Of a stretch of 64,000 nt of DNA, positions 28,984 to 36,954 are shown in pieces. Source of the DNA: Octopus sinensis (Eukaryota). The stretch is taken from assembly GCF_006345805.1 (NCBI RefSeq), contig NC_043003.1, positions 95,108,001 through 95,172,000 on the forward strand, read 5' to 3'. The stretch's first letter is position 1; every line of letters starts with the position of its first letter. The notes below the pieces were generated by a model. It saw only the letters and a list, made by a program, of their open reading frames with translations, was not told the origin of the DNA and did not search any database. Position numbers and translations under genes: made by a program.

Positions 28984-29550
28984 ATTTAAATGATGAGGGA
29001 GATATACACATGTATTAGAATTTTCTCTGATTTTTCAGATTTTTTGTATGGTAGACTACTGGTTTTAAATTGATATTAAAATTAATATTAATTTATCTCC
29101 CTCATTATTTAAATATTGAAATAAATACGTTCTCTAGTAGCAAGCACTAACCGCAGTGAATTATTTACTGCAGTTCTTCACTTCAGGAATTTTTTAGCGC
29201 ACCGGAATTAAGACATTTGAAATTTTATCCCTAATGTAATCATAAAACTAAACACGTGTCTGTTTTGGCACAGAAAGCTGGGGTTAGTTTTTTCAGAATG
29301 CATTTACACTGAACGATTGTACTGATGAGGCCACGGACATTTGAATTATGTAAGTAATTCTTTTGTTAAAGGCCGAAACCGAGGTATGCAATTAATTCTG
29401 ATTTTTATATAAATTTTCATCTGTCCTGCCCGCCAAATTTGGTTCTGGTGTTCGCTGAATTTTTCCTCTAGAGAACTTTCTTTGTAGTTTGATCGTTGAT
29501 GATCTATTTCTAGCATGCGGCCGACTACCTAGCAGTCTTGCCCTGTCAAC
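28984..29550 (+). mobile_element. PLE pLTR-derived element in (TA)n with short 5' inversion
   Basis: ATTTAAATGATGAGGGAGATA (28984) is inverted at 29094-29114; contains a canonical hammerhead; TA-rich tracts on both sides. Confidence 0.65.
29316..29392 (+). ncRNA. Type-I hammerhead ribozyme (canonical core)
   Basis: ATTGTA-CTGATGA-GGCC-(38-nt loop)-GGCC-GAAA-CC-GA-GG-TA^TGCAAT; stems I, II and a short III all pair; predicted cleavage after 29386 (GUA). Confidence 0.8.
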
Positions 29551-29747
29551 ATATACATATATATGTATATATATATATCCACATATATAATTATTTGTGT
29601 GTGTGTGTGTGTGTATATATATATATATATATATACATATATATATATATATATATATATGTAGGTCCCGGGTTGATTCGGGGTTAACCACAGTAAATAA
29701 GGTACTCAATACATAGCAGAGTAAAATTAATTTATTATATAGAAGGA

Positions 29748-29796
29748 GCTTCTACAGGACTAGAACTGTTTCATTCAAGAGAAATCATCAGGAAGC
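29748..29796 (-). ncRNA. Type-I hammerhead ribozyme (canonical core)
   Basis: Minus strand GCTTC-CTGATGA-TTTC-TCTT-GAAT-GAAA-CAG-TTCTAGTC-CTG-TA^GAAGC; U.U mismatch at the base of stem II; lies within inverted repeat 29734-29860. Confidence 0.7.
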
Positions 29797-30125
29797 ATTT
29801 CTCTTGATGATTTCTCTTGAATGAAACAGTTCTAGTCCTGTAGAAGCTCCTTCTATATAATATATATATATATATATATATATATATATATATATATATA
29901 CAATTATAGTTTCAGCCTGCTTAGTCTTCAAGCTCATGAGTGTCAACTCTGTTCTTGTAAAAGAATAACAAGCATATACTCTACAAAAAGTATTTATTAA
30001 TCCTTTAGTTTCATATAAAACTGTGTTTTTATTATAATTCCACATAAAAACAAACATTAACATATATGTGCGTGTGTGTGTGTGCGCACACATATATACA
30101 TACATATATATATATATATATATAT

Positions 30126-30311
30126 ACTTTATTTAAAAGCAGTTACTCGGAGTTTCACGCTCCCATTCGTCAGACAGAACGGGAGCGTGAAACTCAGAGT
30201 AACAGGTTTTGTTGAATGTCTACTGCTTTTAAATAAAGCATATTACTCTACCCCTGGTATTTGAGTACTCTTTTTTTCCACCTTGTTTCACATTTATGTG
30301 TTTACTCCGGC
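30126..30311. mobile_element. PLE pLTR fragment with inversion and split hammerhead
   Basis: Minus 30177-30142 reads CTGT-CTGACGA-ATG-GGAG-CGT-GAAA-CTC-C-GAG-TA-AC; plus 30179-30205 reads ACGGGAGCGT-GAAA-CTC-A-GAG-TA-ACAG; (TA)n on both flanks. Confidence 0.65.
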
Positions 30312-30896
30312 ATATATATATATATATATATATATAATATATATATATATATATATATAATATATATATATATATATATATATATATATATAATATATAT
30401 ATATACATATATATATATATATATATATATATATATATAAATATATACATATATATATGTATATATTTAAAAAGTGTACATTTAAACACAAGAGAAAACT
30501 ACCTTTAATAAGGTAATTTTTACATGCTAGAAATAGCAGCCAACACAGCCAAAACCATGATTTAATAGCAATTTTCGAAGGGATTGAAAAATAAAAACTT
30601 TTACTTTGTTATTTATTATCGGTTATACTATGGTTTCGAAATTTCTTTAGCAAACAATATTATTTGCCATCCTTTAATAGGTAATTTAGCAAAACAATAT
30701 TATTGCAAGGCAAATTTCTCGTCAGTAACCGACCTCAATAACTAACTTATGAATATGTTGTCTATTGACTATTTATACATGTTAGACAACTGGTAGTGAT
30801 ATTTATAACGAATATTCGCTACCCTATATATGTATCTTATGTATATATATATATATATATACACGCACACACACACATACACACATATATATATAT

Positions 30897-33562: not shown

Positions 33563-35852
33563 CACCAAACAAGCAGGAGGAACCAAAAGTAATAAAAATT
33601 ATTAATCTAACTCACAAGGAAATAACAGCAAACCAAATAAACATACTTTCCAAAGGACTCAAGTTTACACCCACCCCACAACACCCCAACTACAATGAAA
33701 TGAAAGAAGACATCGCAGAATTCTGCAGAAAATTAAGACTTACTGAGGAGCTATACGATAAATACAATGAGGACGAATCGTTAGCCAGAAATAGGAGTAA
33801 CTACACCCCCTCGAAAGGTAAGAATAAAACACTTGATGATTTCTGTGACCACATATCAAATTACCCATATCAACATATGCACAAACAAAAACACAAACCA
33901 AACTTCAGCAAAAAAGAATGGGCTGAGTTGAACAAATTAAAACTAGATAAAACAATAACAATCAAAGAGGCCGATAAAGGGAGTGCTGTTGTCTTAATGG
34001 ATACGACATTTTACATAACTTTGGTACTTTCTATGCTGGAAGACACAACATACTATGAAAAGGCACAAAACTACAGTCAACAAAAAATAATGAGGGAACT
34101 AAAATCCATATTAAACCCATACAAAGCAGGGCTCACCGACAAAGAATATGATTATATGACCAATTTCACAAGTAAAACTAGCCAATTCTACGGTATACCT
34201 AAGATCCACAAAAGTGAAAAAATAAGCAACGCATGCAAGATAGCTACAGACAAAATAATTAAAGTCCCTAATCCTAATGACCTCAAATTGAGACCCATAA
34301 TAGCAGGTCCCGCATGCGAAACCCACCGCCTCAGTAACTTTTTAGACACCCTGTTAAAACCACTCCTCAAGCATGTCAAAAGCTATATAAGGGACGACTT
34401 AGATATGCTCAATCACCTACCGAATACTATAAGCAAAAACACCATACTGGTATCCTTCGATGTAGTCAACCTCTACTCCAATATCCCCCACAACCTAGGA
34501 CTAGAGGCAATCCAATTCTGGCTAGAGAATCACGCCAACGAACTACCACACCGCATCAAAAAAGAATTTGTGATGGAAGGGGTTAAATTCATCCTGGAAA
34601 ATAACTTCTTCGCCTTCAATGACAACTTCTACCGACAAAAATCGGGGACTGCGATGAGTACACGAATGGCCCCCTCCTTTGCCAACCTAGTCATAGGATA
34701 CCTAGAGATCAGTCTGTATCGTAAGGTTCTAGAAAGATATGGCAGCCCTTTCTCCATCTACATAGAAAACAACTGGAAGAGATATCTAGATGACTGTTTC
34801 ATCCTTTGGCATAAAAATATAGAAAAACTCATAGAATTCCAGAAAATTTTAAACGGACTGGACGTAAACATCCAATTCACGATGGAATATAGCCACAACA
34901 ACTCCCCTTCCTCAATATCCTCATTAAGAAAGCTAATAATATAATAGAAACAGACATATACTATAAGCCTACAGACTCTAAGCAATATCTTCCATTCAAT
35001 TCATGCCACCCCAGACACACCAGGATGAATATCCCCTTCAATCTAGCAAAAAGGATATGCACTATAGTCTCTAACGCAAACACCAGAGACACACGACTAC
35101 AAGAACTAAAAGATACCCTAATCACCAGGAACTATCCACCTTCACTTATTGACAAGTGCATTCAACGTGCCCTTCAACTTAACATCAAGGAACTGAGACA
35201 TCCCAAATCAAAGAAAAACTTACAACCAAAAGCCTTACCATACATCTCCACACACAACCCTCTCAATAACGAAGCCTTCGACACCATCCTCCACAACATA
35301 CCCCTCCTAAAAAAAGACCACAGAATGAACACAATCCTCCAAACACACACAATCATAAAAAGCAAAAGACAACCTAGATCCATGAAAAGTCTCCTTACAC
35401 AAGCCCGAATTCACTCTTCAACACAGAAGCCGACAGTAAAGAAATGTGGAAGACCCAATTGCGGGATATGCGACTATCTAATTGAGGGATCAGAGTTCTC
35501 CTTCAAACAGGGACAACGGTTTACAGTGAAAAGCAACTTCACATGTACTTCGGAGAACCTAATATACTCACTAACCTGCTCCGGGTGTCAAGAGCAGTAC
35601 ATAGGCCAAACAAAAAATGGTTTGCGTAAACGAATGGCCCTGCACAGATCCCAGATAAAAATTCCCCAAAACAGAAAAATAGCTTTTAGCCAACACATAG
35701 ATACTTGCGCCAACAAAAAAACACCAAACTTCAGAATTTTCCCCCTCTACCAATTTAGGGACGATACAACCTCGAGACAACGAATAAGTAAAGAAAATCT
35801 CTTTATTACAAAATACAAGCCACTTCTTAACGGGTCTACGACAAACAATTAA
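33499..35852 (+). pseudogene. PLE reverse transcriptase - GIY-YIG endonuclease polyprotein, frameshifted near 34900
   Basis: LSKGLKFTPT, KEADKG, FYGIPKIHK, LRPIIAG, SFDVVNLY, GTAMST, RYLDD motifs. After the frameshift: TDIYYKPTDSKQYL, CGRPNCGIC, NLIYSLTCSGCQEQYIGQT. Confidence 0.93.
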
Positions 35853-35957
35853 TATACCTCAACTTTAGAATAAAAGAAAAATATATATACACACACAAAT
35901 ATTACACTCCATAGAATCCATTACTAATCAGCCCCTTCATAGCTATACTTACACCCT

Positions 35958-36225
35958 TTCATATTCTCCCTTCTCTGTTTTTTTCTTCTTCTTCTTCTTC
36001 CTCTTCTTCTTCATCATCATCATTATCATCATCATCGTCGTCATCATCATCACCACCATCATCACCATCTTCTCCTTCTCCTCCTTCTTCTTCTTCTTCT
36101 TCATCATCATCATTATCATCATCATCATCGTCATAATCATCACCACCATCACCATCATCGTCATCTTCTCCTTCTCCTTCTTCTTCTTCTTCTTCTTCTT
36201 CTTCTTCTTCTTCTTCTTCTACTTC
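35958..36225. repeat. (CTT)n/(CAT)n trinucleotide block in PLE 3' UTR
   Basis: Directly visible. Confidence 0.9.
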
Positions 36226-36578
36226 TCCACCCCCTACCCCTTAACTTTGTCACTAATGTTTTTTAGTATAACACCTACGCTAATTCTATAAACAAGCCTG
36301 TCAATATAAATATTCTCCTGAATTGAACTGAGACTGCCAGCCGCCACTGACCATTCAAAATACGACCATCAGGGCACTCCCAGTTTCTCCCACCCCCCTT
36401 TCCTCACCAGCCTTCTTCCTCTACTACCCTACCAAGAACTCACAACGACCTCCAACACTCAAGTGCAAACAAGGGAGTCAGAGAAAGGCAGAATGCCACT
36501 TAAATCTGAACACTACTATAGAAATATTCTTTTAAAAAAACTTTTCTTCTAATTTTTCTAAATTTAATTATTTAATCG

Positions 36579-36622
36579 TTACAGTTGAAAAGGTCTCAAA
36601 ATGACCGAAACCGGTACTGAAA
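36579..36622 (+). ncRNA. Minimal type-I hammerhead-like motif, U3-A8 core variant, at PLE 3' end
   Basis: TTACAG-TTGAAAA-GGTC-TCAAAAT-GACC-GAAA-CCGG-TA^CTGAAA; palindromic stem III ACCGGT. Confidence 0.65.
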
Positions 36623-36954
36623 TGTTCACTATAAAATTATTTTAGCATTTTCTATTTTTGACTTGTTTTTTCATATATATATATATATATGCATATATAT
36701 ATATGCATATATATATATATCGAAATTGCGAGGATGATCCGGTTCTTGACTAAAGATTGAGGGCTTCGAATGTCCCATCCGGGTTTTTTGTATCGTCTTC
36801 TAAATGTTTTGCGTTTTTGTCCCAGTTTGTATTTTTTTACATATATATATATATATATATTTATATATATATATATATATACACATACAAATACATATAC
36901 ATATATACATTCATATATGTATGCATATGTATGAAAGTATATATATATCTATAT

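Follow-up and report, generated by a model that had tools for sequence, protein, structure and literature searches.

How do several sequence-unrelated elements, each set between TA microsatellites and bearing traces of a hammerhead ribozyme, come to lie side by side, and which enzymes placed them there? The question is raised by a 64,000-nucleotide (nt) stretch of the Octopus sinensis genome (the window throughout), in which five such elements lie between positions 28985 and 36672, the last of them a coding Penelope-like element (PLE). Our answer, which we consider probable, is that the cluster is a pile-up of separate insertions made in TA microsatellites by PLE reverse transcriptase (RT) and GIY-YIG endonuclease, mostly 5'-truncated stumps, together with at least one hammerhead family with a 560-nt unit and no open reading frame (ORF) that borrows these enzymes. 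The stretch is mostly ordinary PLE remains within TA repeats, and the 560-nt non-coding unit is the exception. The anatomy of the elements, their TA ends, the head-to-head arms with a tail, a dead Neptune-type PLE copy and a multi-copy, joined 560-nt unit are directly visible. The PLE and retrozyme identification and the TA targeting given in the initial annotation hold, and they are largely published biology: minimal hammerheads, head-to-head arms, one-sided tails, (TA)n targeting, non-autonomous PLEs and retrozymes are all already known.

Insertions between TA repeats

The five elements begin at about 28985, 29661, 30127, 31731 and 32838 and are mutually unrelated, as had been claimed: BLASTN matches among them are at most 21 nt long, with a best E of about 0.02. 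Element 1 (28985..29550, plus strand) is a short ORF-less insertion with a 20-nt inverted arm and about 547 nt of forward sequence, the arm (28985-29004) being the reverse complement of 29094-29113 at 19/20 positions. Element 2 (29661..29859, minus strand) is a head-to-head stump pair with arms at 29736-29859 and a 75-nt one-sided tail at 29661-29735, and element 3 (30127..30311, plus strand) is a head-to-head pair with a 73-nt tail. Element 4 (31731..32779), of the 560-nt family, has an inverted arm on the minus strand and then a forward part on the plus strand, and element 5 (32838..36672, plus strand) is the coding PLE. All four short elements carry the inverted arm that had been described for them.

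The TA-bounded ends are also borne out, in that 19 of the 22 listed termini touch a (TA)3+ run, against a background of 6.4% of window positions; two of the others sit 6 nt from such a run (imperfect TA repeats) and one adjoins (ATC)n. There is some circularity in this count, since both the elements and their boundaries were chosen with TA as a guide. The window is microsatellite-rich, with (TA)5+ making up 3.3% of the sequence. Less circular are two copies of the family found at 46748, which are identical at 63/64 positions and, though inserted at different sites, share their last base, beside TA (the second 3' end lies at 43129-43192), and the relatives at 32838 and 15261, which end at equivalent positions.

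Across the window we counted eight head-to-head pairs, each with one arm extending 31-79 nt beyond the other (judged by eye at 49712). Inverted 5'-truncated arms, a 30-40-bp one-sided tail and a (TA)n bias associated with the CX2-5CxxC linker have been reported by Craig et al. 2021 (PMC8557442), and arms and tail also by Arkhipova et al. 2013 (PMC3846280). A PLE has been shown in vitro to cut and extend both strands, with two start points inside the RNA that set the tail (Frangieh et al., PMC11167929). The cluster resembles Neptune PLEs (PMC8557442) in its (TA)n bias, 5' truncation and inverted arm with tail, and differs in tail length: six of the eight tails here measure 57-79 nt, whereas those published are 30-40 bp. 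At the end that has no tail, the template stays in phase with the TA repeat over 18 nt summed over the 8 pairs, compared with 3.9 expected (P about 5e-5, in a small, post hoc comparison).

A mechanism that would produce this layout begins with the endonuclease nicking both strands of a (TA)n tract. Reverse transcription would then be primed by each 3' end at an internal position of the RNA; the two positions would lie 31-79 nt apart, and this offset would give the tail. The nearer of them would likely anneal via a short UA-rich stretch, and both complementary DNAs would usually stop early and be joined head to head. We also noted internal deletions of about 20 nt (30127-30180) and about 58 nt (31731-31760) in inverted arms, at short microhomologies, a pattern that suggests template jumps in second-arm synthesis.

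Element 5 is a dead, 5'-truncated Neptune-type endonuclease-containing (EN+) PLE. It opens with a 5'-truncated, broken ORF1 remnant (32838..33326, plus strand), which matches ORF1 in the related loci L002, L003, L004, L007 and L011 (tblastn E 1e-15 to 1e-3); a search for ORF1 among longer proteins gave no match. The RT (33499..34890, plus strand) has DKG and YLDD motifs and is 59-60% identical to its top matches, the best named one being a protein of Octopus sinensis (67% identity across 78% of the query). Beyond a frameshift near 34890 that splits the RT and endonuclease parts, the other frame holds the thumb, a CX4CxxC linker and a GIY-YIG endonuclease with CCHH (34893..35852, plus strand). 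Pfam detects both enzymes named in the initial annotation (RVT_1 E 9e-6, under the curated cut-off; GIY-YIG E 1e-4). The 3' end at 36672 lies within (TA)n, and the 5' end, truncated inside ORF1, adjoins (TA)n. No upstream pseudo-long terminal repeat (pLTR) or partial tandem, which is needed for activity, is present at the 32838 end, and the copy is an inactive member.

The Neptune placement was made by eye, from the linker motifs and the long linker-to-GIY spacer compared with Fig. S2 of PMC8557442; the spacing fits Neptune (long) and not Nematis (short), and both the CX2-5CxxC linker and CCHH are present. Shared with Neptune EN+ PLEs as described there are the RT with DKG, the CX2-5CxxC linker, the C-terminal GIY-YIG with CCHH and a 3' hammerhead; the difference is that the copy here is dead. 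Of 14 related loci that we compared, 7 (L001, L002, L004, L007, L008, L009 and L011) connect ORF1 with the RT frame through a T-TTT-TTA slippery heptamer in the -1 register, and the window has A-TTT-TTA at 33523-33529; programmed frameshifting is the likely explanation of the heptamer, and the Fig. 1 legend of PMC8557442 mentions an optional frameshifted ORF1. Four related loci, L081-L084, sit in contigs of bacterial genome assemblies and are likely eukaryote contamination.

A relative of this PLE lies at 15261..17092 (plus strand). It is 5'-truncated and has endonuclease remnants of 57-76% amino-acid identity, an inverted pLTR arm and a 31-nt tail, and the hammerheads of the 32838 and 15261 families differ by a compensatory change in stem II. 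Since it is a truncated copy with endonuclease remnants, some items taken as non-autonomous are stumps of coding elements, and the copy shows directly how coding families yield short hammerhead-bearing TA insertions. The diverse non-autonomous population envisaged in the initial annotation narrows accordingly: non-autonomy is shown for the 560-nt unit alone and inferred for 28985, whereas 15261 is a truncated copy of a coding family. Apart from these three, the short elements are indistinguishable from coding-PLE stumps on present copies. The enzymes at 33499-35852 had been proposed as the mobilizing partner; this PLE is dead and has no sequence in common with any of the four short elements, which leaves the proposed partnership unsupported. 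The insertions may also help to expand the microsatellites, as the initial annotation proposed; target duplications, which would bear on this, cannot be seen within (TA)n.

A 560-nt non-coding hammerhead unit

The forward part of element 4 (31844..32779, plus strand) comprises 1.67 head-to-tail copies of a 560-nt ORF-less unit, whose repeats (31844-32219 and 32404-32779) differ at 5/376 bases. Its inverted arm (31731..31843, minus strand) starts about 79 nt past the forward end (source 32275-32298) and then jumps to the unit's end segment. The longest ATG-initiated ORF in the unit encodes 49 amino acids, and GC is 35%. Each unit holds a complete type-I hammerhead, at 31973..32034 and 32533..32594 (plus strand). 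In the standard position numbering of hammerheads (C3, G8, G10.1, C11.1 etc.), both have a C3-G8 pair, an A.A mismatch at the base of stem II and a 3-bp stem III with a triloop; they are identical, with predicted cuts after 32028 and, 560 nt downstream, after 32588.

The family is present in 20 of the 24 public runs listed, which span 8 studies and 3 organism labels; X21-X24 contain almost none of it. We examined the junctions in contigs of four public runs, aligned to one permuted unit; that these runs are RNA is a guess. The joint from end to start (32779 to 32220) occurs in 4/4 runs. In X5 its depth (200) equals that of the other junction (202; contig 32357-32551), in X10 (42 million letters) a single 539-nt contig spans both junctions, and in X16 the two ends of a 597-nt contig overlap by 30 nt, closing a loop in which 16 letters are unlike those of the window. 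At several sites, none of them in the hammerhead, the majority form departs from the copy in the window, and other copies therefore exist; no variant at 10% or more is listed across the unit 2 hammerhead in the four runs. The monomer is strongly self-paired, with fold z-scores of -6.0 (linear) and -5.1 (circular), compared with -1.9 for the antisense strand; six other stretches, controls or PLE sequence, range from -1.7 to +1.9.

Under the tandem-hammerhead definition of Li et al. 2026, the unit would count as a retrozyme: at least two consecutive hammerhead units are present, with two complete type-I motifs 560 nt apart in 1.67 units, and the unit is non-coding, self-paired as a monomer and multi-copy, with variant copies in public runs. 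As to the canonical form of the hammerhead, the core is intact with A.A at the stem II base, and neither Rfam nor our own covariance model scores it. The unit shows the PLE insertion pattern and therefore likely hitch-hikes on Penelope enzymes. It would be transcribed as a multimer and cut by its hammerheads into 560-nt monomers, which may be circularized; copying in trans round a tandem or circular template would then give the 1.67-unit insertion. Element 28985 may be a second retrozyme-like unit: the source of its inverted arm lies close to the 5' end of the element's own forward part, its fold z is -4.5, and its circularity would follow from the arm source in a single partial copy.

The 3' end of the 560-nt unit (32695-32770) is common to a roughly 10x more abundant family with different flanks, which is a lead on a partner. 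A 16-nt piece of it recurs at 30529 and in a 107-nt tandem at 43915-44181. A hammerhead-like match at 32681-32737 within the unit (E about 2) was set aside; it has no good stem I, and abundant related contigs change 32689 and delete 32723.

Hammerhead motifs and competing explanations

The initial annotation gave each of the five elements a hammerhead fold. Complete motifs are found in three of them (28985, 31731 twice, and 32838), whereas in 29661 and 30127 the inversion cuts the motif. Besides the pair in the 560-nt unit, the complete motifs lie at 29316..29392 (plus strand; type-I, C3-G8, G10.1-C11.1, a 7-bp stem I and an extended stem II, predicted cut after 29386), in the 3' pLTR of the coding PLE at 36579..36622 (plus strand; minimal, U3-A8, with a palindromic 6-nt stem III, predicted cut after 36616) and at 43425-43473. 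In element 29661 (minus strand) the core is present with C3 at 29791, where it is truncated, and stem I lacks its 5' strand. In element 30127 the motif is split: the inverted arm has the core, with C3 at 30173 on the minus strand and the 3' stem I strand deleted, and the forward arm has the 3' half. Among the additional sites claimed outside the cluster, 43425-43473 is complete, but 16998 (element 15261), 7564-7604, 46918 and 49712 are degenerate.

These motifs were collected with a type-I descriptor relaxed after they had been seen, allowing N3-N8 pairing and a bulge or mismatch at the stem II base; the strict first descriptor had 29315 as its sole convincing match. The relaxed version gives 4 matches in 28978-36672, where 200 shuffles average 0.065 (max 1), and 6 window-wide, compared with 0.8 (max 3) in 30 shuffles. 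As a control, 84 related PLE loci from other organisms gave 41 sense matches in 34 loci and 5 antisense, many of them directly after the endonuclease; this sense bias and placement indicate that the descriptor detects a real PLE motif. A match at 16894-16950 was dismissed as chance. The relaxed search proposed earlier, with covarying N3-N8, thus yields motifs in excess of shuffles, but Rfam and covariance models confirm few: no hammerhead in the window reaches the Rfam gathering score (best weak match HH9 at 36571-36635, E 0.47), and a covariance model built on a rough alignment of 28 of 30 related-PLE hammerheads, and too weak for most of the motifs, finds only 7564-7604 significant (E 0.003; 36578 E 1.4, 29746 E 3.7). 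A hammerhead 20-mer had no match in viral contigs.

The hammerheads resemble the minimal PLE-pLTR motifs of Cervera & De la Pena 2014 (PMC4209133) in type-I topology, short palindromic stem III, the U3-A8 variant reported there, an extra base 5' of stem II, mostly single dispersed copies and opposite-strand pairs 100-700 bp apart. They differ in the G3-C8 core at 43425, which is not mentioned in the accessible text of that paper, and in a subgroup with a 9-nt stem III (30127, 31731, 46748 and 48455). A G3-C8 core also occurs in just 1/41 sense matches of the related loci.

A more ambitious reading than ours, which we consider less likely than not, is that the 560-nt unit is an expressed, self-cleaving and circularizing cephalopod retrozyme whose circle PLE enzymes copy into TA via UA microhomology, with 28985, 30127, 46748 and 48455 (long-tailed, 8-9-nt stem III) as further families. 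Several points weigh against our own explanation. The hammerhead fold is not the minimum free energy (MFE) structure of the 560-unit motif (-9.0 vs -13.2 kcal/mol), and the A.A mismatch sits at its stem II base; a two-copy co-fold, whose MFE structure has no double hammerhead, is uninformative here. Our covariance model missed the two best motifs, those of 28985 and the 560-nt unit, whose stems II and III are longer. A search of the window elements and the 84 related PLE loci revealed no autonomous partner with the same 3' end as the unit, and no element of the cluster has a BLASTN match in those loci. The closed contig loop arises equally from DNA tandems, contigs cannot show RNA ends, and the PLE-type footprint of the family rests on one locus. 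Cleavage and circular RNA are predicted for the unit, and only 1/9 tested retrozyme dimers cleaved in the work of Li, Clavereau & Pollet 2026 (bioRxiv 10.64898/2026.07.22.740005). The TA-phase priming suggested here also differs from the Poseidon element, whose priming site has no homology to the target (Frangieh et al. 2024, PMC11167929).

Some of these points would equally suit a pLTR-derived satellite amplified locally as DNA by unequal crossover, with an inert hammerhead and a PLE-like footprint that is rare or inherited. Local tandem amplification has been proposed by Li et al. 2026, where 8/9 tested dimers were inactive (bioRxiv 10.64898/2026.07.22.740005); the motif is non-canonical at the stem II base, and contig loops need no RNA circles. 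We nevertheless regard this explanation as unlikely, because the inverted arm has a second start some 79 nt inside the next unit, implying that a tandem or circular template was copied at insertion, because the structure is strand-specific (z -5.1 sense, -1.9 antisense), and because the hammerhead core is unchanged among copies that differ elsewhere.

It is less likely still that the short elements, the 560-nt one among them, all represent truncated 3' ends from various coding PLE families. This holds for 15261 and could hold for 29661, 30127, 43228, 46748, 48455 and 49712, and 5' truncation with inverted pLTRs is the norm in PLEs (PMC8557442, PMC4209133). For the 560-nt unit, however, contigs cross the two junctions at equal depth, the loop is closed by one contig and there is no ORF, and among the loose ends listed none leaves the spacer into other sequence except one 26-nt end at 32228; as an account of this unit, the stump reading is already largely refuted. 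Finally, DNA foldbacks or TA-targeting transposons resembling miniature inverted-repeat transposable elements, with hammerhead-like motifs by chance, are very improbable: although TA is also the Tc1/mariner target and the window has a hammerhead-free inverted-repeat element at 40555-41927, the arms of the palindromic elements meet at variable centres with one-sided tails, and the motifs exceed shuffles, covary and occupy the sites where related PLEs keep theirs.

Surrounding repeats and relation to known retrozymes

Outside the cluster, head-to-head pairs occur at 43228..43550 (plus strand; 65-nt tail, the complete minimal hammerhead with the G3-C8 core), 46748..47015 (minus strand; near-perfect palindrome, 68-nt tail, hammerhead at 46918-46980 degenerate), 48455..48680 (plus strand; absent from the initial annotation, with a hammerhead 3' half and a 57-nt tail ending in (ATC)n) and 49712..50052 (plus strand; 36-nt tail by eye, degenerate U3-A8-type remnants). 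The degenerate hammerhead at 7564..7604 (minus strand), in an element adjoining TA at 7462, has a perfect core and weak stems I and III.

Other repeats lie nearby. The element at 40555-41927 has GC-rich inverted arms of about 490 nt around an internal TA/CA run and is possibly a DNA transposon derivative. A four-copy repeat (26780-27073, 42734-43117, 63485-63758 and 39807-39912) carries a short GC-rich hairpin and then a terminal CTAG, and is presumably Helitron-like. A 270-nt repeat (42464-42733 and 44424-44693, 94% identical) has a second copy ending directly at a TA run, and 9353-10091 holds a partial tandem plus inverted copy of a unit of about 220 nt that begins beside TA, a PLE-like layout; neither has a hammerhead match. 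Two regions resembling the 3' regions of long interspersed elements (37046-38087 and 60899-62070) are 77% alike, with a 224-amino-acid ORF remnant (no Pfam match) followed by 65-67-nt tandem repeats. A search of the window for tRNA genes found none.

Animal non-LTR retrozymes (PMC7229834; bioRxiv 10.64898/2026.07.22.740005) share with the 560-nt unit an ORF-less tandem with one type-I hammerhead per repeat, low GC, a strongly self-paired monomer and co-occurrence with PLEs. The unit size is above the 150-450 nt of the former paper and inside the 51-972 nt of the latter. Chlamys elements such as MRC1 (PMC8557442) are likewise non-coding PLE passengers with head-to-tail insertions; they differ in that most have no canonical hammerhead and have a 3' end like that of an autonomous family, a kind of partner that our search did not find. 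Our literature search on cephalopod or octopus retrozymes retrieved no describing paper, with subscription papers, Repbase and the supplements of Li et al. (which may list invertebrate families) outside its scope, and in the main text of an Octopus vulgaris repeat annotation (PMC13282606) neither "hammerhead" nor "retrozyme" occurs.

Mobilization of retrozymes by PLEs has been proposed and is unproven (PMC7229834; bioRxiv 10.64898/2026.07.22.740005). The importance of the locus is modest, how animal retrozymes move being still a hypothesis in these papers, and the 560-nt insertion supports it. The papers argue from co-occurrence and pLTR similarity, whereas here the insertion itself has a PLE-type footprint. 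An ORF-less hammerhead tandem with an inverted arm, two start sites and a TA target makes the hypothesis testable by genome-wide flank analysis, and if the reading is true, the locus would be direct footprint evidence that animal retrozymes are parasites of PLEs.

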